Source: Octopus sinensis (taxonomy: Eukaryota). Taken from it: DNA of 64,000 bases. Below are positions 1 through 64,000 of the stretch, one piece after another. Both the position numbers and the translations under genes were made by a program. Under the pieces are notes generated by a model. That model was given only the letters and a program-made list of their open reading frames with translations, made no database searches and was not told the DNA's origin. Location: contig NC_043001.1 in the NCBI RefSeq assembly GCF_006345805.1, forward strand, positions 72,912,001-72,976,000, given 5' to 3'. Position 1 is the stretch's first letter. Each line of letters begins with the position of its first letter.

Positions 1-396
1 TCATAATTGTAGTATCCTACGCTGATGAGAAAAGAAGTTTGGGTAAGGTAGAATTTTCTAATTCTTATGCTTTCCTAAAACTTGATTTCGAAACCTACGT
101 CCGTAGGTGACTTAAAATTGTATGATAGATTGCCGTCATTTCATTCTCTCTTACCTGTCTGTGTTTGCCTTTCAAGTGCTGTGTTTTTACTGAGATCTCC
201 CTTTTAGTGGAAAGAATAGCTATAACTCTTTGACTGCTATTTCTAAATTCGGTGTGTGGCGAGGCAATTCATTGCTAAACCCTTAATTGCTTAGTATTAC
301 TTAAATTTTCCTGGAATGAGGCTTTTACATGCCGAAATCTACTTGGTGTAATTAATAATTATTCCAAATTAATTAATTTCACCCTTTATTGTTACT
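1..396 (+). mobile_element. 3' part of a hammerhead-bearing Penelope-like/retrozyme-like element, ending at (TA)n
   Basis: Hammerhead followed by several hairpins; 205-385 resembles 30155-30335 and 30957-31136; abuts a (TA)n tract. Confidence 0.6.
11..112 (+). ncRNA. Type I hammerhead ribozyme motif (canonical core, long stem II, minimal stem III)
   Basis: Stem I CCTACG(16-21)/CGTAGG(102-107), extendable by AGT(11-13)/ACT(110-112). Core CTGATGA(22-28). G29-C89 closes a long stem II containing AAGTTT../..AAACTT and the AGAATT-ttct-AATTCT hairpin. GAAA(90-93); stem III AC-ctac-GT; cleavage triplet GTC(99-101). Confidence 0.85.
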
Positions 397-397
397 G

Positions 398-488
<91 letters not shown>

Positions 489-3704: not shown

Positions 3705-5496
3705 GGCATTGGAAGGATTGTTAGAGCATTGAACAAAATACCTTGCAAATGTTTCTCCTAGCTCTTTGAATTTTAAGTTAAGTCCAGTGTAGGTCAACTT
3801 GCCTTTCCTCCCTTTAGAGTCGATTAGATAAAATACCAGTCAGATACTGGGTCATAGTAGTAACTAACACCCTCCTCTTCAAAATTGCTGGCCTTGTTCC
3901 TAAATCAGAAACTACTATTATTGGTAGGGATCTGGCAAAATTGTTGAAGTGTCAGAAAAAATATTCTTTCTGTGATATTTTTTCCCATTTTTTTACTTTT
4001 TGAGTTCAAATCTTGTTGAAGTCAACTTTGATTTTCATCTTTCCAGAGTTGATAAAATAAAGTGCAAGTAGCAGGGTCGATGAGATTGACGAAACCTTTC
4101 CCTCAAAATTGCTAGCCTTGCACCTGAATCAGCAACTATTATTATTTCAAAAGTTTTTGTATCTCACCCCTATGATGGAATTTAGGTGGGTTTACTCTTA
4201 GATAACAAGTCACCACCTGTAACCTCCGTCATCCAAAGATTTGCAAATGATCTACACTGTTCCTAAGAAGTAGGCAAGTTTCATGTATTCAATATGCTTC
4301 TGCTAGCCAATCTTTTCTGACTACTTGAGCCTCTTCCACATTGTTCTTAAGGCTCCAATGATGATGATGATATTATTATTATTGTTATTATCTAAGGCAG
4401 CAAGGTGGCAGAATTGTTATCACACCAGGTGAAATGCTTAGCAGTATTTCATCTGCCACTACTTTCTGAGTTCAAATTCCACCAAAGTTGACTTTGCCTG
4501 TCATCCTTTTGGGGTTAATAAGTTAAATACCAGTTGTGTACTAGGGTCGATGTAATTGATTTAGTCCTTCCCTCAAAATTTCAGGCCTTGTGCCTATAGT
4601 AGAAAGGATTATTATTATTATTATTCTATGTTTGACTTTTGCCTTACATTTGTTCAAATTGGCTCCAAGTCTCACCCAGAGACCTTAAGAGACAACAAGT
4701 TGGAAGTTCATGTTGGTGTTATGCCTAGGGTGCCATATATTTGGTTTTGTACTTAGTGTTGTACTTGTGAATGTCTAAAAAAGCATACAAAAATTATGTT
4801 TGTTTTAAAACTTGAAATTACATAGAAAGTATTTTGCATAAGATATGAGCAGTTCCCATGAGCACTATCTTTTGAATTTCTGTCATTTTTGGGTTTCCTG
4901 GTATCTGAGTTAGGTAGCGATCAGCCCCTTTTGCTATCATTCCCAGGGCACCTATGACAACAGGTATTGATTTAGTCTTCAGGTTCAACATATTGCTTAT
5001 TTCTATTTCAAGATCTTTGTATTTGCTCAGATTTTGGTAGGTCTTGACAGATATGTTTATATCGATTGGGACAGTCATATCAATGAGGAGGCATGTTTTT
5101 TGTCTGAAGTCTTTCAATATGAAGTCTGGCCTATTCGCATCTATCTTTCTGTCAGTTTGAATGGTGAAGTTCCAGAGGAGTGAGATGTGGTCATTTTCAA
5201 GCACTGGATGTGGTTTGTGTTCCCACCAGTTTTTTATCGTGGGGCAAGTCCAGGCTTTTGAAAATTACCCAGTGAATATATTGTGCAGCTCTATCATGCC
5301 TGTTGAAATACTCTGTAGGTGCAAGAAGACTGCACTTGGAGACAACATGATCAATGGTTTCATTTTGTTGTTGACATACACGACATGTTGTGCTACTGCC
5401 GTTCTTTAATATGTTAGCCTTGTAGTTCCTTGTAGGTAGGCATTGATCTTGAGCTGCTATGATAAACCCTTCTGTTTCAGATTTTAAGCCAGAGAC

Positions 5497-5535
<39 letters not shown>

Positions 5536-6420
5536 AGGCAGTGAGCTGGCAGAATCATTAACATGCTGGACAAAATGCTTAGCAGTATTTAGTCTGTCGC
5601 TGCATTCTGAGTTCAAATTCCACCAAGGTCGACTTTTCCTTTTATCCTTTTGGGGGTTGATTAATTGAGAACCAGTCAAGTACTGGGGTCGATATAATGA
5701 CTACCCCCTCCCCCCAAATTCCAGGCCCTATGCCTATAGTAGAAAGGATTATTATTATTATATAAGGCAGCGAGCTGGCAGAATTGTTAGCATGCCAGGT
5801 GAAATGCTTAGTGGTATTTTGTCTGCTGATACCTTCTGAGTTCAAATTCCACTGAGGTTCACTTTGCCTTTCATCCTCTCAGGGTCAATAAAATAAGTAC
5901 CAGTTAAACAGTAGGGTCTATGTAATCAATTCATCCCCTCCCCCAAAATTGCTGCCTTTGTGGCAAAAGTTGAAACTATTAGTATTATTATTATAGCAGT
6001 AACCTAGCAGAGTTATTAGCATACTGGACAAAATGCTTAGTGGCATTTCATCTATCTGTGTTTTGAGTTCTAATTCCACTGAGATCATCCTTGCTTTTGT
6101 CCTTTCAGGGCTGATGAAATAAGTACCAGTCACGCACTGGAGTCAATGCAATCAACTAGCTCCCTCCCACAAAATTCCAACTCTTGTGCCTTCAGTAGAA
6201 AGGATTATTGTTATTAAGCTGGCAGAATCATTAGAGTGTCTGATGTAATGTTTAGCTGGCTCTTTATGTTCTAAACTCAAATCTCAATGAGGTCAGCTTT
6301 GCTTTTCATCCTTTCAGGACCAATAAAATAAGTGCTAGTCAAGCACTAGGGTTGATGTAATTAACTAACCCGCTTCCCACTAAAATTGCTGGCTTTGTAC
6401 CAAAACCTGAAACCATTGTT
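3705..6420 (+). mobile_element. Head-to-tail cluster of about 7 SINE family B copies with (ATT)n tails, interrupted by a Dong/R4 element
   Basis: Recurrent 'aaggcagcgagctggcagaat...ttctgagttcaaattccac...gactttgcctttcatcc...agaaaggattattatt' at about 3705, 3925, 4394, 5536, 5764, 5995 and 6217. Confidence 0.85.
4626..5497 (-). mobile_element. 5'-truncated R4/Dong-clade non-LTR retrotransposon (CCHC + restriction-like endonuclease), frameshifted
   Basis: ETEGFIIAAQDQ...CRVC...ETIDHVVSKC...RHD, then LLWNFTIQTDRKIDANRPD...CLLIDMTVP...KYKDL...IPVVIGALG; stop at 4818; (ATT)n on both flanks. Confidence 0.9.
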
Positions 6421-8644: not shown

Positions 8645-9125
8645 TGAGACACCAAAATATTGGCTTCAAACTTTGGCACAAGGCCAGCAAATTCGGGGAA
8701 GTGGATAAGTTGATTACATTGACCCCAGTATCCTGCTGGTACTTATTTTATCGGCCCTGGAATGATGAAAGACAATGTCAACCTCGGGAGAATTTGAACT
8801 CAGAATGTAAAGAAGGACGAAATGCTACTAAGCATTTTGCTTGGCATGCTAATGATTCTGCCACCTTCCCACCTTCTGAGACACCAAAATATTGGCTTCA
8901 AACTTTGGCACAAGGCCAGCAAATTCGGGGAAGTGGATAAGTTGATTACATTGACCCCAGTATCCTGCTGGTACTTATTTTATCGGCCCTGGAATGATGA
9001 AAGACAATGTCAACCTCGGGAGAATTTGAACTCAGAATGTAAAGAAGGACGAAATGCTACTAAGCATTTTGCTTGGCATGCTAATGATTCTGCCACCTTC
9101 CCACCTTCTGAGACACCAAAATATT
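8645..9125 (-). repeat. Exact 232-bp tandem dimer of a family B SINE
   Basis: 8645-8876 appears identical to 8877-9108; the 17-mer TGAGACACCAAAATATT occurs at 8645, 8877 and 9109. Confidence 0.92.
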
Positions 9126-9207: not shown

Positions 9208-9499
9208 TAACCCTTTAGCATTCAGATTACTCTGTCAAATGTAATGCTTCTTTATTCACATTGTTTTCAATTAATCAAGCATTAATTGTTTAATCAAGCA
9301 TTAATTGTTATGATGCTTTACTCACATTGTTTTGAATTAATCAAGCGTTCTCACAGTTTTGAGATTTCAATAATGTGACTGTTTATTTTTAGAATGATAT
9401 TGTAGGGTAGGTGTGAGAGGCTGGATCTGGTCAGTTTGAACATAAAACTGGCAGAATATTTAGGCTGGATAGGGCCGGTTTAAATGCTAAAGGATTAAT
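9208..9499. mobile_element. piggyBac-like MITE (family 1)
   Basis: Ends taaCCCTTTAGCATT...AATGCTAAAGGAttaa; an inverted copy lies at 34375-34598. Confidence 0.7.
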
Positions 9500-16940: not shown

Positions 16941-18800
16941 CGGCCACGATCAGATGGTTTGCTTACTTGTCACCACCACTGGTATCACAGCTGCAATTTC
17001 CATTGATGTTGATCGACTTCGATTTTGGTTCTGCTTTCTGATATCTGATTTGATAGGACTATGGGACATTTCATTTGCTGTAATAATCTCACCACCTTAA
17101 TAATAAATGTGGTTTCTGATTTTAGCACAAGATACGCAAATTTGAAGGGAGTTGGTTTACTTAATACCATCAACCCCAGTTTGTGATTGGTACTCTGTTT
17201 TTATTGATTTTGGAAGGCTAAAAGTCAAAGATAACCATATAAAGATTACCTTTCATCCCTAAAAATTAGCTTGCAGAAACCATTCCCAAACGAAACCATT
17301 GCATCCTGAAGTAGTCATGATCAGTGTAGTCAGACCCACGTTCTGTGCAGCACAGGATGAATTTATTAAGGGCTTTTACTAATGTTCTTCATATCTAATG
17401 TAAATTTTCCTTTTTTTTATGACTGTTCTTTTACTTCTCTTCTTGTCTCCCCCTCTCTCTGTCTTAGCCTCTCTTTCCCTCTCCCTCTCTTCTGTCTTAC
17501 CCTCTCTTTCCCCTCTCCCTTTCTTCACCACTGTATCTCCCTTGATGGTATTGTGTTGCATGAAATTCAGACTTTAACAGCAATAAATAAGTTTGGTTTT
17601 ATTTATTTATTTTTCCTTATTTCTTTGAGTTTTATTAACAGTGTATGAATAGAACAAAACAGTTGAAATTTCCTGCTTATTATGAATGCTTTACTGTTAA
17701 TGTTTATGGAGAGACTATTCTGAAGTATAAGCATGTGTGATGATAACTCCAGATTGATGCTGGAGCAGGAGGGAGTGGTGAAATATTTATGATCCAACAT
17801 TAATCCCCTAATTCCCCCTCCCTTCCATGTTTACACATTAATATCGAACTCTCTGGTGCCACAGTGTCAACATTCTACAGAACAAGAAACATATTTCTAT
17901 TTAGATGAGGAAATGGGAAGCTTTTATTTAGAAATTTTGCTATCAACCATATTCTTCAGTTTTAGTGGCCATTTGATTCATCATTTACAGGAAGTGTGTA
18001 TATGTATGTATATTCTTGTGTTTGGGTGTGTGTCTATAATAATAACCTTTCTGTTATAGGCACAGGGCCTGGAATATGTTTTGGTGATGGGAGGGTACTA
18101 GTCAATTACATCAGCTCCAGTGTTTCACTGATACTTAATTTATCGACCCCCAAATGGATGAAAGGCAAAGTCAACTTTGGTGGAATTTGAACTCAGTATA
18201 TAGCAGTAGACAAAATACCACTAAAACAGCTGATATAAATATTGGTCAGTGGATCTCTTCAGTCATACTTTACATTGTATTCAAAGAGGGGAAGAGGGAG
18301 TAAAAGAGAGATACAGACAGGACGGGTGTGCATACTAGGCTCGATAGCAGACAATGAGTAAAGGAATGGCATGCGTGTGTGTGCGTGCACACACACACAC
18401 ACAAACATACATACATACATACATTCATACATAAATACATGCCCTCTTGCATACATGTAATTGAAAAACTGGTTAGAATTGGCAACAGGTAGAGCAACTG
18501 TCTAAAAATCCTGCCTCAAATAAATACCTATCTAGCTCTTGCTAGCATAGAAAAACAAACATTCAATGAACAGATAACAGATACACCCGCATACACATAT
18601 GTATATAGGTTACAGGTGTGGCTGTGTGGTAAGAAGCTTGCCTCCCAACCATATGGTTCTGTGTTCAATACCACTGTGTTGCACCTTGGGCAAGTGTCTT
18701 CTACTATAAACTTGGGCCAACCATAGCCTTGTGAGTGGATTTGGTAGACAGAAACTGAAAAAAGCTCATCGTTTATTTATATATATATATATATATATAT

Positions 18801-19468
18801 AAAAGTAGATAACTGGTACAACAAGGCACCAATATTTACTGGAAAATAGCAATCGTAATAAATACGACGCTATTGTATCACTTCACTGTGTATATACTAG
18901 CAAAGACGCGTGTGTGCAACAAACATGAAAAAAATTTGTCTTACCTCTAGGAAGAACATCTGATAAATGGACAACCTAGAATCAGATAATGCAGGACCGG
19001 TTTCTGACTCTTCAAATATGTTTGACAACGTAAATTTGATTAGTCTTCATCAGCTGCATTTACCTAGACAAAATTTCAAATGTTGCCACATCAATACCAG
19101 TATACTTGTCTGAACGCCAAAACGTTAACAGAACGAAAACAGTGAAGAAGTTTCAATGAAATTAATAATGCAATACAAATGTATTACTTTCCAGTAAAGG
19201 ATAGCCCCATAAGGGTAAAATTATACGTATAAAAGTAGATAAATGGTACAATAAGGCACCAATATTTACTAGAAAATAGCAATCATAATAAATACGACGC
19301 TATTGTATAGCTTCACTACGTATATACAAGCAAAGACGTGTGTGTGCAACAAACATGAAAAAAATTTGTCTTACCTCTAGGAAGAACATCTGATAAATGG
19401 ACAACCTAGAATTGGATAATGCAGGACCGGTTTCTTTTACTGGAAAGTAATACATTCGTATTGCATTA
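18801..19468 (-). mobile_element. Hammerhead-bearing non-coding element: 430-bp-period direct repeat plus short inverted head, in (TA)n (Penelope pLTR/retrozyme-like)
   Basis: 18801-19004 resembles 19231-19434; 19435-19468 is the inverse of 19166-19199; hammerhead at 18988-19060; (TA)n on both flanks. Confidence 0.8.
18988..19060 (-). ncRNA. Minimal type I hammerhead ribozyme motif
   Basis: Minus strand reads AATGCAG-CTGATGA-a-GACT.TCAAAT...ATTTGA.AGTC-a-GAAA-CCGG-TC-CTGCATT: perfect 7-bp stem I, palindromic ACCGGT stem III, GUC cleavage between 18995 and 18994. Confidence 0.88.
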
Positions 19469-19723
19469 TATATATATATATATATATAGAAAGAGAGAGA
19501 GAAAGAGCAAGGGTGTGAGAGGTATTGGTACCGAGAAGACCCAAAGAGTGGCAGGTAACACCAAGTAAGTGCTATGGACACACCATAGTTAAACTTTTAG
19601 TTCAATAGTGGTACGAGTGAGGAGTCTAATGTGAGTCTTGTATTAGCATGCATATATATATATATATATATATGTGCATGCTGTGAGTAGTTTTCAGGAC
19701 ATTTTTAAGGAAAAAGATATATA

Positions 19724-19771
19724 GTCTTACAGCTGTTTCTGGGATATTATGGATATCTCTTCATCAGAGAC
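19724..19771 (-). ncRNA. Minimal type I hammerhead ribozyme motif
   Basis: Minus strand reads GTCT-CTGATGA-a-GAGATAT ccata ATATCCC-a-GAAA-CAGCTG-TA-AGAC; palindromic stem III ACAGCTGT, GUA triplet, 4-bp stem I. Confidence 0.72.
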
Positions 19772-20324
19772 GATGTGAGATGGTTAAATAGAGGTAAGTA
19801 TTTGAGTTTGAAATTAGGAATTATTATGGAAAAGGAGGAGATAGCAAATATAGAGGTGAAAGGAGAATGACAGTAGAAATAAAATATATAAAGATTGTAG
19901 TTGCAGTTCCATTATTCGAAGAAAGTGGTAAAAAAGTTTCCTGTACATGATATGTAAGTTCCAATAGTAGTTTGTTTAGTCATTTCAAAGTATGGAGCCA
20001 TGGATTCTGTGTTACTCATTCGAAAGGATCTTCACACCATAAGACCCTTTCGAATGAACAACCCAGAATCCACAGCTCCATACTTTGAAACGACCAAACA
20101 TGAACTACTACTGGTACTAACATACCATGTACGGGAAACTTTTTTATCACTTCTGTACACCACTTTCTTCAAATAATGGAACTGAAACTACAATATCTCT
20201 ATATATTTTATATTTCATTTCTACTTTCATTCTTATTTCCCTCTATATTCCCTATCTCCTCCTTTTCCATAATAATTCCTTATTTCGAACTCAAATATTT
20301 ACCTCTATTTAACCATCTCACATC

Positions 20325-20372
20325 GTCTTTGATGAAGCGATATCCATAATATTCCAGAAACAGCTGTAAGAC
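20325..20372 (+). ncRNA. Degenerate hammerhead motif (core C3->U), inverted partner of 19724-19771
   Basis: GTCT-TTGATGA-agcgatatccataatattcca-GAAA-CAGCTG-TA-AGAC. Confidence 0.55.
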
Positions 20373-21497
20373 TGTATCTATATCTTTTTCCTTATAAATG
20401 TCCTGTAAACTACTCACAGCTTTGGCTTTATCTCATTTTGTCTAATATATGTGTGCGTGTGTGTGTAAAATGTTATATAGTAACGGAACAGTTGTGGTAG
20501 TGGGTGGAGAGGCAGGCCAATATACTGATATATAATGATACAGTTAGGAAGGGTGTGTGTGTCTGCATCTGTGCACGCATGCACACACACACACACAATA
20601 ACAGAAATGGCAATGACAGAGAGGAGGAAACAGAAGAGAGCATAGGATTGGTATAGATGTTTAAATATGTTTTTCTAGACATTTTGACATTTTCTATAAA
20701 CAGCAGTCATATCAATATCTTCTGGATTTTGTTTGTGTATGTATATATATATACCTGTGTGTATGAGTGTGTCTCTGTATTTGTGTGCATCCATATATAT
20801 GCATGTTTGCATATTTGTGTGTGTGCACGTGCCTAAGTATGTATGGATGTTTGCATATATGTATTTGTGCACATGTATGTGTATGGGTAAGCATGTGCAG
20901 GTATGACCATATGGTTGAGAAGTTGGTCTTGCAACCATGTAGCTTCAGGTTCAGCCCTACTGCATGGCGCTTTAGTCTCCTACTATAGCCCCAGGCATTT
21001 CAATGCCTTGTGAATGGATTTGGTTGATGCAAACTGAAAGAAGCCCATCACATGTATGTAGACACACTTACACACACTGAAATCGATGTGATTCATTTGT
21101 GCATGGAAAAGTGGACATTAAAATGATGATGATGTTGTGTGTGTGTGTGTATAAAAGCACCTAACACACTGTAAAGTGGATGACATTAGGAAGGGCATCC
21201 AGCTGTAGAAACCATACCAAATCAGTCTGGTGTAGCTCCCTAGCTTGTCAGCTCTGGTCACACTGTCCAACCCATGGACAACAGACATTAAATGATGATG
21301 ATATATATTTATGAAGTTTGCTTCTCAACCATAAGATATTGCCATGGCATGGCACGCTGGGCAAGTGCATTCTGTTATAGTTTCAGATCAATCAAAACTG
21401 AAAGAAGCCCATCATATACATGTGCATGTGTATCTGTGACCTGTGCGTGGCCATGAGAAAATATGATCTTACTTGGAAACAGCTTAGGATTGTTGAT

Positions 21498-21605
21498 AGG
21501 AAGTGCATCCACCATAGAAAATACCCACTCGTCAGGAAGTGCATCCACCATAGAAAATACCCACTCGTCAGGAAGTGCATCCACCATAGAAAATACCCAC
21601 TCGTC
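21498..21605. repeat. Perfect 36-bp tandem repeat x3 inside a SINE
   Basis: AGGAAGTGCATCCACCATAGAAAATACCCACTCGTC x3. Confidence 0.95.
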
Positions 21606-24333: not shown

Positions 24334-24343
<10 letters not shown>

Positions 24344-24490
24344 AAGTTAAATAAGGCCGGTTTTTGAGATTACCTTAGGTTTCACATCCATAAAGGATTT
24401 AGCTTTATGGCGTATTATCTGATGATAAACCCTTATGGACGTGAAACTTAAGGTAATCCCATAAACTGGCCTTATCTAACTTTAATATAT
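24334..24490. repeat. ~65-bp-arm inverted repeat between (TA)n tracts with hammerhead-like boxes
   Basis: 24334-24401 is the inverse of 24426-24490; CTGATGA(24419-24425)...GAAAC(24443-24447)...GTA. Confidence 0.7.
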
Positions 24491-24739
24491 ACTGCTTTAT
24501 TACTTAGAGTGTGCTTCTTTCTTTCAGATTCATGTTTTTACAGATGATATATAATATATATATATATATATATAAATTAGAGAAAAAACACTATTATGCA
24601 ATTCAAACAATGATATACATAAACCAAATCATAAATAAAAAATAAAATAGATTTTTTAAAACATATAACTAGATCACAAAAAGGACAAAAATGAATAATC
24701 AATATATATATATATATATATATACATACACACACACAT

Positions 24740-29500: not shown

Positions 29501-30000
29501 TATTCATTGTAAACCACCACATGACATCTCACAAGCTGACAAAATCATAAAAATGTTTCTTTTGACTCATTATGTTCTGAGTTCAAATTCTGCGGAGGTC
29601 AATTTTGCCTTTCATCCTTCCAAGATTGATAAAAATAGTCAAGAACTGAGAGTGGGTGTTATCAACTGACCTCCTTCCCTCAAAATCACTGACCTTGAAA
29701 CAGTTATTATTTAACCACTACAGATTCACCTCAGTTCCTGCCATTCCTCTTACAGAATCATTATGAGGTCACAATAGTAGTAAAAAGGCAAAATGCACGC
29801 CTCAAACTTTATAAATATGTTTCTTTTTTCTTTATTTCTGCTTGGTTTTGAGAAGTTGCACCACTCCTATTTGTCAATAGAGTGACATTAGAAAGAGATT
29901 CAATTGTACAGTTTACATATTTGTAGAAATAAACCATCCCACACATAATGACATGACGAAAAACTGAGTTTAAAGTAGTAAATATATATATATATATATA

Positions 30001-30340
30001 TATATTTGAAGTATTAATTTATAAAAAGTATTAATTTATAAAAAGTATTAATTTATAAAAAGTATTAATTTATAAAATGTGATCTTTCATTGTTTTTCCC
30101 TTATACCTATGTGAGTTATTTTTCTGAGTATGCATTGTCTGGAGACTTTTATTTGCAGTTGAAGAAATAGCCAAATTTTTGGCTGCTATTTCTGAAAAGT
30201 TCGGTGTGTGGTAAAGTGAATTCTTTTACTTTACCATATTTTTATAAATTAATACTTCAAATATACCGTAAATGGTCTTTACATACCGAATACTGCTTGG
30301 TCGAATTTATTAATAATTAATTAATTCGACCCCCTTTTTT
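30001..30340 (+). mobile_element. Structured non-coding element related to 1-396, with inverted head
   Basis: 30001-30027 is the inverse of 30239-30265; shares gctatttct..ttcggtgtgtgg..ttacat.ccgaa..cttggt with 205-385; flanked by (TA)n. Confidence 0.6.
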
Positions 30341-30341
30341 G

Positions 30342-30372
<31 letters not shown>

Positions 30373-30750
30373 CATGTGTGTCATCATTGCTTGATGTCCA
30401 CTTTTCCATACTTCTATGGGTCAGATGGAATATGTTGTGGCAGATTTTCTGTGATCCTATGCCCTTCCTGTCACCAACCCTCACTTATTTCCAAGCAAGG
30501 TATTTTTGTCCCTATAGCCAGATATATTTTCGCAGAACATTAGAAACAAATGACACTGCTTGTATGACAGTAACTGGAGCATCACCTTAAAGGGTTTTAA
30601 TCAAACAAATCAACCCCAGGACTTATTCTTTGTAAGCCTAGTACTTACTTTATTGGTCTCTTTTGCCAAATTGCTAAGTTACAGGTACATAAACACACCA
30701 ACATCGATTGTCAAGCATTGGTTGGGGGACAAACACAGACAGAAAGATAT

Positions 30751-30808
<58 letters not shown>

Positions 30809-31140
30809 TTGAAGTATTAATTATAAAAAGTATTAATTTATAAAAAGTATTAATTTATAAAAAGTATTAATTTATAAAATGTGATCTTTCATTGTTTTTC
30901 CCTTATACCTATGTGAGTTATTTTTCTGAGTATGCATTGTCTGGAGACTTTTATTTGCAGTTGAAGAAATAGCCAAATTTTTGGCTGCTATTTCTGAAAA
31001 GTTCGGTGTGTGGTAAAGTGAATTCTTTTACTTTACCATATTTTTATAAATAATACTTCAAATATACCGTAAATGGTCTTTACATACCGAATACTGCTTG
31101 GTCGAATTTATTAATAATTAATTAATTCGACCCCCTTTTT

Positions 31141-31175
<35 letters not shown>

Positions 31176-31552
31176 CATGTGTGTCATCATTGCTTGATGT
31201 CCACTTTTCCATACTTCTATGGGTCAGATGGAATATGTTGTGGCAGATTTTCTGTGATCCTATGCCCTTCCTGTCACCAACCCTCACTTATTTCCAAGCA
31301 AGGTATTTTTGTCCCTATAGCCAGATATATTTTCGCAGAACATTAGAAACAAATGACACTGCTTGTATGACAGTAACTGGAGCATCACCTTAAAGGGTTT
31401 TAATCAAACAAATCAACCCCAGGACTTATTCTTTGTAAGCCTAGTACTTACTTTATTGGTCTCTTTTGCCAAATTGCTAAGTTACAGGTACATAAACACA
31501 CCAACATCGATTGTCAAGCATTGGTTGGGGGACAAACACAGACAGAAAGATA
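30001..31552 (+). repeat. Near-identical 803-bp tandem duplication bounded by (TA)n
   Basis: 30008 aligns to 30811 and 30741 to 31544; the differences I saw are single-base indels in homopolymers or TA runs. Each unit has a 17-bp repeat x4 (AAGTATTAATTTATAAA). Confidence 0.93.
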
Positions 31553-31560
31553 TATATATA

Positions 31561-31605
<45 letters not shown>

Positions 31606-33060
31606 CATACATACATACATACACGACAGGCTTCTTTCAGTTTCTGTCTACCAAATCCACTCAAAGTTTTGGTCAGCTTGAGGCTATAATAGAAGTCGCT
31701 TGTCCAAGGTGTCACATGATGGAACTGAACCTGGAATCATGTGCTTGGAAAGCAAGCTTCTTACTACACACCACACCATACATGTTTATACTTGTATGTA
31801 TATATGTGTGTGTATTTGTGTAGCTTCCACTGAAGAATATAAACATCAGCATGAAATTGAATAAATGAAGCTCTGGTCTCTCTCAGAACCTTGTAACCAA
31901 CAAAAATAAACATGCAGATTTAATCCAACTACATCATGGGTTAGTGCTTTTTATTATAGCCCTGGGCCAATTAATGCCTTGTGATTATAAATGGAAACTG
32001 TGTGGAAGCCCTTCATGTGTGTGTATGTTTGTTTGCTGCCTCGCCTTCAACTGTGTGACAAGCAATTGTTTGTTAATGTCTATGTAACTTGGAAGTTCAG
32101 CAAAAAAGTACTGAGGTCAATTCAGTCAACTAAAATTTCTTAAGGCGATGCCCCAACATGACCACAGCTCAGTGACTAAAACAAGAAGAATAAAAGAATG
32201 AAAGAAATGTGTTTATGTAGTATAAACACTTGCACACACACATATATAATGTTGAAGAATAGAGAGGAGAGAGAGAATAGTCCTAATTTGCTTTAGTACT
32301 AGTGTTGAACAGACTAGTAGTCATCGTCGTAGTGGTGGTGGTGGTAGTAGTAGTAGTAAGGTGATCTAATTAATTATAGACACATGTGATTGGTTCGCAG
32401 AAATCCAAGTGGCAGAGAATGTAACATCAGTGAGTGAGTGAAATGACCCTGGTATTTTCTGTCTGTCTGCTGCACAGTAGCTCTCTCTCCCCACTACTAA
32501 CAAATACACTTCATATGACTGATCATTATTACAGTGAGCCGCTCACATTTCTGTGTCTGTAGAATGACAGTAGGTCATTGTCATTTAAACTTTGTGTGAA
32601 ACAAAAACCTGAAAACAAACAACAGCTCTCCCCCCCACACCCCACACACACACCAAAGACAAATAAAAATGAAACATTAAAAACTTTGTTTATGCATTTA
32701 AAAGAAAGTTTCTTTTTTTGTTTTCTTTCCACTCCTCCTTCACATCCCACTTCATCATCATCATCTAATGTCCATCTTCCCTGTCAACATGGGTTGGATG
32801 GTTTGACAGGATCTGATGAGCCAGAGGACTGTGGAGCTCCAGTGTTTGCTTTTAGCATGGTCTCTATGGCATGATGTCTTTCCTTATGCCAACTGCCATC
32901 TCTCATAATTCATGATACTGTTTCATTAAGCAAGATAAACTTTGTTATTGTTCCCTAAGTCAACCCTTCATTAAGCTCTTAAATAATTTCATTACATTGT
33001 TTAAAACTCTATTTTTCCACAGAGTTCCATGTAAAATTTTATATGACTATTACTTTTCCT

Positions 33061-45127: not shown

Positions 45128-46344
45128 CACAGACATGACAGAAGTAAATAATCAGAAGTTATTATCGTTAAAATTTATATAAATCTGAAATCATACATTT
45201 AAATTATTTATTATTATAATGTGAATATCTAATATTTAGTAGACATGCCCTTTGCATTTTTCAATGCGAGAATCCTTTAAGGCATGCTGCTGATCAGATG
45301 ATGAATATTCCCTTGGGGAATTTCTTGCCAAGTTTCATGCAGTAATCTCAAAAGATCTGGCTTTGAGAATGCTTTCTTGTTCTTTTTATGAAGTGTCCTG
45401 TCCATTATGCCCTAGAGGTGTTTATAGGGTTCATATCTGGTGATTGGCTTGGCCATGGAATCTTTTTAATGCCATTTTTTTTTCCAACCAATCTTGAGTC
45501 TTATTAACCATGTGACAGTATATCCCCATCTTCCATAAATAAAGAGTCTTTTCCAATTATTTCACCACTGGAGAAGATTGGAAGGAGTCCTTTCTGCAAT
45601 ATGGGCACATATTTATCTGAGTTTATGTTTCCTTCACACTCCACCAGCTCTGATTGATCATTGCTCCAAATTGCTCCCCAGACCATTACATCAATCTTTT
45701 CATGTCAAATGTTTGATCACAGAGTCTCCAGACCCGCACTTGACCACTGTCAGAAAATACAGTAAACCTGGATTCATCAGAGAATATTATAGTGTCCCAA
45801 AATTCTAGCGGCCACTCCATCATCGCACTGGTCCAATCTTTTCTCCGCTTGATATTAGCTAGTTGAAGGAGGGGCTTCCTTCCTGTTGCTCTGTCATAGT
45901 AACCATGTTTGCGGAGATACCTGACAGCTGTTCTGAGACTGACATCAACTTTTCTTGCTATGTCAGAGGCCTTGCAATGAGGATTACCCTCCACACTTCA
46001 CTTAACAAAGAGAGGGGTCTTGTCAGAGGGCCCTGGTCTACATGGACAAGGTGATGTGTACTCCTCTCTGGTGGATTGCACAATCACCCTATTAACTGTA
46101 GAAAGTGGGATCCCCAGTTTTTTTGCGATTTTACCTTAAGTCTACCTTCAGATTGATCCACAATATGGCCTCTTTGAAATTTGGACAGTTCCAAGGCTTC
46201 TTTTGTATGTGGCATGATTAAACAGCCACATATAGAACCTGAAACTTTAAAATGTCTGTTAATAAAAAATATAAACTTTTACAAGTTAAAATGAACATAA
46301 AACAATGTTTGATGGGGTGTCTATTTAACTCTGTCATGTTTGTG
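45128..46344 (-). mobile_element. Full-length decayed Tc1-family DNA transposon
   Basis: TIRs CACAGACATGACAGAAGTAAATA / TATTTAACTCTGTCATGTTTGTG; TA at 45126-27 and 46345-46; transposase pseudogene inside. Confidence 0.9.
45229..46215 (-). pseudogene. Tc1 transposase pseudogene (multiple frameshifts and stops)
   Basis: MPHTKE..ELSKFQRG..KIAKKLGIPLSTV (HTH), RKPLL, W..IIFSDESRF, MVWGAI, FMEDG, WPSQSPDMNPI, KGMSTKY*. Confidence 0.92.
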
Positions 46345-62476: not shown

Positions 62477-63129
62477 CAGCTATCTCAGCATTATAGCCTC
62501 TACCAGGAACTAATTACTTACACACACACTATCATTATGTTCTTGTATGAAACAGTGTTAGATGGAGGGATAGATGTTATTGACCAATCAGAATGGCAGT
62601 GAATTAGCAGAATCATTTGAACATCAGATAGAATGCCTGTTTGTGTTTGGTTATGTACCTTTATGAGTTCAGATCCTACTGAAATCAGTTATGCCTTTCA
62701 TCCTTTGGTAGTTGACTATATAAAGTATCAGTTAAATACTGGGGGTTAAGTGTAATCCATTGTACCCTCCTCCTGAATATGGTGCCTTATGCCAATTTTT
62801 AAAATTGATATTGGGCTTTGAGTAGTTGTATCAGAATCTCTGTACTCTAATGTCCTATTTAGCTGGAGTTTAGTCTCATATCCTCTTAACTACACAAGTG
62901 TTTTACCCAAGAACACAGCACAAAGCACTTCATTTCATGCTCCTTAAGTCTACTCAGCTGAAAATTAGTAGCAGCAACTGCTGGAGGTTAATCCTGTAAA
63001 GGACTGGTGTCTTGTTAAAGGGTGGGTAATATTGTTCTTTCCATCACTTAAGACACCATGTAAAATGGGACAAGCTCTGACCCTGTGAAGTTGTACATTC
63101 ATGGCAGGCCTAAGACCAGTCTGGATAGA

Positions 63130-64000
63130 GATTGTCAGTCACTACACATTTTGTTGGTCACCAGCATGAATACAATATTTCAACTAAAGAATAAGTATAA
63201 AATTACATGGATGCACCCTGGTTCTAAGAAATGGCATCTTATAGATTACATGCTCACCAAGAAACGAGACACTAGGGACTTTGCTGTTGTAAGAGTGATG
63301 CATGGTGCAAAGTGCTGGACTGACCACAGGCTGTTGCGTGCCAAGGTGAATTTTGTTGTCAAGCCTAAGGTTAGAGCAAATAATAAGTTACCTAAACGGA
63401 TTAATGTCGATTATCTTAAGATTCCGTCTGTACACAATGAGTTTGTGAGTGAGATAAATAATTTGTCCTGTGATGGCAGTTGGAAGTCATTCAAAGAAAG
63501 AGTATACAAGGTTTGTAGTAACATTCTTGGCTTTGCTGTAAAAAAATACCAGGATTGGTTTGACAATAACAATGAAAAAGTTAGTCTTATCTTAGAGGAG
63601 AAGCAAAAGGCATTTAACATGTTGCAAAATGTTGACATGTCAGCGAACAGGACATTGGCTACCTAATTCAAGGCAGTAAAAGCAACAGTGAGGATGATGC
63701 ATGAAAATTTGGTGGAGTGATAGATGCAATGAAATCCAAGAAGCTTCAAATGCTAACAATTCCAAACTTTTTTACTCTCTCTTGAAAAAAGTTTATGGAC
63801 CAGTTTCATCAAAGGTTGCACCACTTCGGAACAAGGATGGCACAGAATTATTAACAAATCCTAAGGATATTGTTGGGAGATGGAAAGAACATTTTGATGA
63901 GTTGCTCAATAGACCCACTGAAGTTGACCTCTCTTTCCTTGATAATATACCTGAAAGACCAATAAAACATGTTATAGCAGAAATTCCAAACCTGACTGAA
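63130..64000 (+). mobile_element. RTE-clade LINE (APE endonuclease C-terminus and linker), disrupted; continues beyond the window
   Basis: NTIFQ..TWMHPGSKKWHLIDY..CWTDHRLL..QDWFD; stop at 63664-66; then in another frame WWSDRCNEIQ..LKKVYGP..LRNKDG..RWKEHFDELLN. Confidence 0.92.

Follow-up and report, generated by a model that had tools for sequence, protein, structure and literature searches.

The locus raises the question of whether diverged repeats in one genome share a conserved RNA structure and, if so, what that structure might do. The window, that is, the whole 64,000-nt stretch of Octopus sinensis DNA analyzed here, is AT-rich, repeat-dense animal DNA. An initial annotation had pointed to a multi-hairpin RNA domain shared by elements at 0.2 kb and 30-31 kb. 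We find a predicted fold that recurs in three elements, named A, B and C, and we propose that it likely positions a Penelope-type reverse transcriptase (RT) at two internal start sites, one in a loop and one 3' of the last hairpin. We assign this reading a probability of roughly 0.64. Penelope-like elements (PLEs) have odd ends, namely pseudo-LTRs (pLTRs), tails and inverted arms. To our knowledge, only one PLE has been studied in vitro. A compact fold marking both starts would provide a defined RNA substrate with clear mutations, as well as a structure-based route to non-coding PLE derivatives. PLEs occupy 6.8% of the Octopus vulgaris genome (supplement of PMC13282606; cited papers are represented throughout by the portions available to us).

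Elements A, B and C and their predicted fold

The sequence motifs of the initial annotation were located where it had placed them. Its 12-mer occurs at 248-259 and 30200-30211, and also at 31002-31013, and the pairing partner at 325-336 and 30279-30290, and also at 31080-31091. The upstream AATAGC/GCTATT hairpin (215-241 in A, 30166-30190 in B), the terminal hairpins (P3 in Table 1) and the (TA)n at the end of both copies were confirmed as well. A single 803-bp tandem duplication contains the copies at 30.2 kb and 31.0 kb, which thus count as one independent copy, so that the annotated set consists of two independent sequences, A and B. The duplication (29981-31609) is flanked by (TA)n tracts, and unequal crossover or an assembly artefact could explain it. 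Homology of A and B is evident from blastn (71% over 231 nt, E 1e-18), and a covariance model built from B scores A at 68.2 bits with structure versus 49.6 bits with sequence only. The third element, C, lies on the minus strand.

Table 1. Coordinates of the features of elements A, B and C in the window
Feature	Position	Strand	Basis or remark
Type I hammerhead of A	16..107	+	sole match of strict descriptor
Possible GT-AG intron of A, between hammerhead and domain	107..207	+	weak, from sequence
P1 hairpin of A	212..244 (invariant 6-bp core 215-220/236-241)	+	pair probability 0.89
P2, enclosing helix of A	248-257/327-336	+	pair probability 0.97
P2a, loop and P2b inside P2 of A	258-281, 282-309 (28 nt), 310-321	+	
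P3 hairpin of A	345..383	+	folding
Site 1 of the A family, loop junctions to (TA)n	295..301	+	contigs
Site 2, insertion end of A, 14 nt after P3, at (TA)n	397..398	+	sequence
Element C	18.8-19.5 kb	-	found near weak Rfam hammerhead match at 19 kb
Second terminal repeat of C	18798..19005	-	93% to 19435-19222; ends into (TA)n
Type I hammerhead of C, palindromic helix III	18988..19060	-	descriptor; Rfam Hammerhead_HH9
Complete domain of C	19170..19304	-	folding z: sense -3.6, antisense -1.7
P1, P2 and P2a of C	19304-19275, 19274-19265/19198-19189, 19260-19245	-	
Loop, P2b and P3 of C	19244-19216 (29 nt), 19215-19206, 19187-19170	-	
Inverted 5' arm of C	19433..19469	+	37 nt, 95% complementary to 19165-19201
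Inverted 5' arm of B, reverse complement of B's own loop	30001..30077	-	sequence
Element B1, direct copy without hammerhead	30072..30341	+	(TA)n from 30342
P1, P2 and P2a of B1	30163-30193, 30200-30209/30281-30290, 30210-30235	+	
Loop, P2b and P3 of B1	30236-30264 (29 nt), 30265-30276, 30299-30331	+	
Second unit of the 803-bp tandem duplication, holding B2 (not independent)	30784..31609	+	98.8% to 29981-30807

The predicted order is common to A, B and C: P1 is followed by a 10-bp P2, which encloses P2a, a single-stranded loop of 28-29 nt (28 in A, 29 in both B and C) and P2b, and then by P3. The 6-bp core of P1 is identical in the three elements. The stem had been described as 12 bp long; ten of these pairs stand as P2, but the last two G.U pairs fit better in P2a, the base of which reads GGU/ACC in A, B and C. 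In the window copy of A, both P2a and P2b are weak (pair probability 0.0-0.09), and common alleles of the A family at 260 and 313 restore one pair in each. In C, the pair probability is 0.59 for P2 and only 0.19 for P3. A, B and C differ in loop sequence, with no short repeat in common.

Both A and C carry a type I hammerhead. That of A consists of helix I (16-21/102-107), a core at 22-28 and a long helix II, with predicted cleavage after C101. Position 95 reads G in ~100% of the depth in all four sequencing runs described below, which makes helix III palindromic. An Rfam search missed this hammerhead, while that of C matched Hammerhead_HH9 at 24.2 bits (E 0.0014 in a 665-nt search), under the gathering score of 52. 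The domain of A had been said to follow the hammerhead directly; the hammerhead in fact sits ~100 nt upstream of it. B starts downstream of the hammerhead position, and the 5' start of B1 aligns weakly to A at ~112, about 10 nt past the predicted cleavage site.

Possible short GT-AG introns lie between hammerhead and domain in A, in B (30112-30158) and in C (19374-19316, minus strand). The putative intron of A has a GT at 107-108, a pyrimidine tract and an AG at 206-207, and an AG stands at the aligned place in B (ending at 30158) and in C. A common A-family allele at 109 improves the putative donor. A spliced joint was not seen in the A-family contigs.

Insertion ends within the fold

We then compared the places where the elements end. 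A belongs to a multi-copy family, for which contigs from four sequencing runs of four organisms were aligned to 1-397 (346 to 2937 contigs per run). (TA)n adjoins all five visible ends of A, B and C, and the ends fall at two places in the fold. Site 2 lies just 3' of P3: A ends there, B ends 10 nt after P3, and the inverted arm of C starts at (TA)n 2-5 nt after P3, covering P3 and the 3' strand of P2. Site 1 lies in the loop. The second repeat of C ends at loop nt 14-17; in the A family, three contigs of run X2 join (TA)n at 295-297 (loop nt 14-16) and one X8 contig does so behind 301 (nt 20); the inverted arm of B starts at loop nt 26-29. Site 1 therefore spans a zone rather than a single base. 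Among the 24 loose ends listed, beside 192 unlisted ones, two are of the (TA)n type and both fall in the loop, which holds five of the 38 TA steps of 1-397. Three further A-family joints, each in a single contig of ambiguous orientation, fit the same two places: 99-357 and 1-349 agree with an inverted arm that starts at site 2, and 297-109 with a copy that stops at site 1. The use of the sites is swapped between families. A and B end at site 2, with the arm of B in the loop, whereas C ends in the loop and has its arm at site 2.

In run X1, 18 contigs of the A family run on beyond site 2, behind 395, and C extends past both sites. Since the sequence continues past both ends, these are likely internal start sites downstream of the hammerhead rather than the RNA's 3' end. 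Thus, of the "conserved 3' structural module" proposed in the initial annotation, the conserved predicted fold holds in A, B and C, but its placement at the RNA 3' end is probably wrong. The accompanying guess of RT recognition or priming agrees with insertion ends at two places in the fold. As these two places belong to a shared fold, the fold likely sets the RT start.

Alternatively, the fold might be a 5' UTR element that serves translation, splicing or stability of the uncapped, hammerhead-cut RNA, with ends occurring there only via an accessible UA-rich loop. This would suit a domain that in each of A, B and C begins right behind a predicted 3' splice site and whose sequence continues past both ends, and the Penelope pLTR is described as having an intron and a promoter (PMC8557442). 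We consider it unlikely, because it explains neither why two low-similarity families combine a fixed loop length with ends at loop nt 14-17, nor why C, a 430-nt unit in which no ORF was seen, retains the fold.

Pairing controls and variation

Whether the pairing itself is conserved was judged from the comparison of three independent sequences (n=3). MAFFT misaligns P2 of C, and the helices were therefore compared by coordinates. The covariation claimed earlier is strong with C, which lay outside the initial set, but amounts to little in A versus B alone: P2 has nine identical pairs, one one-sided change and no two-sided change between A and B, while seven of its ten pairs show two-sided changes in C versus A and in C versus B, with three unchanged and none broken. 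In a window-wide search, the covariance model built from B recovered A and did not recover C; in a 191-nt search, it placed the P2 domain of C on the correct model positions, at only 6.2 bits (E 0.03). We regard C as a likely homologue of A and B.

The P1 hairpin occurs at only five places in the window, all of them within A, B or C. The full descriptor, composed after C had been seen, matched none of 600 shuffled windows, two of 5000 shuffles of the downstream region of C, and none of 240 P1-hairpin orientations in 262 unrelated loci. These loci came from pattern scans for homologues, which yielded seven loci in metagenome contigs, at least 120 in prokaryote genomes, and 15 and at least 120 in viral contigs, none relevant. 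Used as negative controls, none of the 262 has the P1-anchored architecture or a (TA)6 tract. A looser descriptor without P1 gives 0-4 matches per shuffled window and one chance match at 16.7 kb, and misses A.

The A family has 23 variant sites in 205-397, 12 unpaired and 11 in helices. All 11 helix variants are pair-compatible, an outcome reached in 2 of 200,000 null draws; six keep pairing and five gain it by repairing mismatches of the window copy. The variants are all one-sided, and the five repaired positions were included with the variants already known; B is paired at the corresponding positions. Between 11 and 32 A-family contigs of each of the four runs diverge after 269 into a different P2a and loop sequence; judged by that sequence, they are a further A subfamily. 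The common allele at 271 turns the P2a loop (268-271) into UUCG in the A family. Parts of A are present in 20 sequencing runs (nine studies, five organisms), among which no RNA run is listed; this distribution has no bearing on expression.

These controls also address the possibility that A and B are an ordinary diverged repeat family, that the likeness of C is due to chance, and that the pairing reflects the generic foldability of a retrozyme-like RNA. The AT-rich sequence, the failure of the B model to recover C and the 9/10 identity of P2 between A and B would be expected from it, and retrozyme RNAs are generally predicted to be self-paired (PMC7229834). Nevertheless, the descriptor controls and the 11 of 11 compatible variants make it improbable, as do the end positions, which played no part in the descriptor.

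Strand of the fold

The six variants that keep pairing all interchange G.U and Watson-Crick pairs. Variants of the G.U type favor the sense RNA, which is also the strand that carries the hammerheads. In A, B and C, the sense strand is favored by RNA energies as well, and the folding z relative to shuffles is -7.9 (sense) and -6.1 (antisense) for B, and -1.9 and +0.4 for A. The initial annotation had likewise taken the G.U pairs to favor the plus-strand RNA. That B folds on both strands might suggest a functional fold in the cDNA strand rather than in RNA, for second-strand priming or endonuclease recognition. This is quite improbable: on the cDNA strand, both the G.U pairs and the variants of G.U type turn into A.C mismatches, and the DNA energies, which do not discriminate between strands, give the cDNA no advantage.

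No known RNA family could be assigned, just as the initial annotation had stated. The Rfam search it had named as a check returned only low-complexity or sub-threshold matches over the domain, none near a gathering score. We considered a SECIS role, in view of the Naiad selenoproteins, and rejected it; Rfam gave no SECIS match. Motif searches in the available portions of the supplements of PMC8557442, PMC13282606 and PMC8967140, where line breaks can hide matches, gave no match to A-C.

Penelope-like architecture

C consists of (TA)n, the 37-nt inverted arm, a 214-nt repeat, a hammerhead-bearing spacer, the second repeat and (TA)n. The two repeats are 93% identical with a 430-nt period, forming a partial tandem of the pLTR type, and the fold of C spans the end of the first repeat. 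An inverted truncated 5' copy is present in B and in C, and three opposite-strand joints of this type occur in A-family contigs. PLEs are described as having type I hammerheads within their terminal repeats, together with partial tandems, inverted 5' copies, tails and a preference for (TA)n (PMC4209133, PMC8557442, PMC3846280). We found no RT or endonuclease ORF linked to A, B or C: B and C contain no ORF, the window edge truncates A, and the A-family contigs extend only ~24 nt upstream of A. The assignment is therefore one of architecture, by which A, B and C are likely PLEs, and our guess for the clade is a Neptune-like one.

That the fold is instead the 3' UTR or tail of (TA)n-targeting non-LTR elements of the Dong/R4 type, or of SINEs using them, is highly improbable in spite of the ends adjoining (TA)n, the abundance of Dong-R4 elements in Octopus vulgaris (table in PMC13282606) and an RLE-type fragment at 4.8-5.7 kb, because PLEs have been described with type I hammerheads whose helix III is palindromic, with a partial tandem and with inverted arms (PMC4209133, PMC8557442), and because the element continues past its ends, unlike a true 3' end.

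Proposed mechanism and known systems

Returning to a fold that sets two internal RT starts, we infer the binding, nicking and priming steps as follows. An RT-GIY-YIG protein supplied by an autonomous element would bind P1 and the base of P2a and nick both strands of a (TA)n target. Each nicked 3' end could then pair with UA in the RNA, so that one strand would prime 3' of P3, at site 2, and its partner inside the loop kept open by P2, at site 1. Of the two products, one would end up as the long direct copy and one as the short inverted arm, and families would differ in which site gives which.

The closest precedent is Poseidon of Anolis carolinensis (PAc), the purified protein of which nicks and extends both target strands, with RT starting at two internal sites on either side of the genomic tail (PMC11167929). 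PAc resembles A-C in its upstream hammerhead, in two internal RT starts matching genomic ends, which are putative in A-C, and in AT-rich targets, of which both strands are extended in PAc (PMC11167929). In PAc, one AC-rich stem-loop 111-118 nt into the ORF holds the starts, which bracket a tail of 30-40 bp (PMC11167929). In contrast, the A-C sites belong to a multi-helix fold for which no ORF was seen, and are 65-100 nt apart (~65, 77 and 100 nt, versus the published 30-40 bp tail). They also lie at UA steps able to pair with a (TA)n primer, unlike the PAc start, which is not homologous to its target (PMC11167929). The fold is best read as the counterpart of the Poseidon start signal in (TA)n-targeting families.

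Traits of Neptune, Hydra and Naiad elements that recur among A-C are (TA)n insertion, partial pLTR tandems and an inverted truncated 5' copy, and the two ends of A-C may correspond to their tail (PMC8557442). Naiads are described as being without canonical hammerheads, unlike A and C, and the available part of PMC8557442 describes no conserved fold beyond the hammerhead and SECIS for Neptune, Hydra or Naiad. Visual comparison with the supplement of PMC8557442 gave no match of A-C to the 3' ends displayed there for Naiad_Obim and Naiad_Ovul, or to the Hydra-1_Obim hammerhead. Animal non-LTR retrozymes are non-coding units of 200-450 nt with a type I hammerhead, derived from PLE pLTRs, and no initiation fold is described for them in the portions available (PMC7229834; bioRxiv 10.64898/2026.07.22.740005). 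The 430-nt period of C is retrozyme-like. Unlike retrozymes, which are recognized as tandem units with at least two complete hammerheads, A-C show no array with two complete hammerheads, C having one complete and one half hammerhead and A having one.

Two-site internal initiation is already known, while the conserved multi-helix fold and the swap of sites between families appear to be new. The literature that we covered, which includes few subscription papers, describes no such fold in PLE terminal repeats. As a sequence, the A-C family may already be catalogued in Dfam or Repbase.

Loop repeats and telomerase RNA

The RT of PLEs is the RT family closest to telomerase. The inverted arm of B makes an exact 27-nt pass over 30265-30239 and then three passes that restart at 30257, with a 17-nt period; the passes halt 3-4 nt short of P2a, with an overlap of two bases. 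One X2 contig of the A family (depth 3.8) likewise repeats loop segments, with a joint from 307 to 286. These could be traces of a template core like that of telomerase RNA, in which P2 encloses a loop of fixed length, P2a acts as the boundary, and the RT realigns and recopies the loop. We offer this tentatively and consider it doubtful. Slippage would likewise yield identical units, and other perfect tandem repeats occur in the window at 8645-9125, 9271-9309 and 21498-21605.

Telomerase RNA has a boundary helix and a short alignment region, which is 2 nt long in rodents (PMC4993307). Similarities to its core are the single-stranded stretch within a long-range helix and the helix on the 5' side, and the 2-nt overlap in the repeated loop of B parallels the rodent alignment region (PMC4993307). 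Unlike telomerase RNA, A-C contain no telomeric repeat, and the likeness is one of layout only. The literature covered, with few subscription papers, describes no PLE RT that adds repeats. Recopying of the loop, if real, would bear on how a telomerase-like RT gained an internal template.

Other elements in the window

Several other repeats were observed. On the minus strand, 4821-5700 is the broken 3' end of a non-LTR element with a zf-RVT match just under the Pfam cut-off, and its motif is one that we take to resemble a restriction-like endonuclease. A fragment of a Tc1-type transposase (HTH_Tnp_Tc3_2) lies at 45689-45997 (minus strand), and two LINE-like ORF fragments are recognizable by eye at 63064-64000 (plus strand), with no Pfam match. 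A weak hammerhead-like motif at 27785-27700 (minus strand), found in a relaxed scan, may be due to chance.

Element D (19680-20420) is a large inverted repeat with arms of ~360 bp, which are 85-95% complementary in pieces. Each arm contains a hammerhead motif with palindromic helix III (at 19767, minus, and 20329, plus), and the element ends ~55 nt after the hammerhead, near (TA)n. Its six frames gave no Pfam match. Element D is likely another PLE family. Element E (24340-24553), situated between (TA)n tracts, has a hammerhead-like core at 24419 and no P1 hairpin, and its inverted 5' arm is long. It shows two apparent ends ~58 nt apart, and its arm begins with nearly the same bases as the arm of B.
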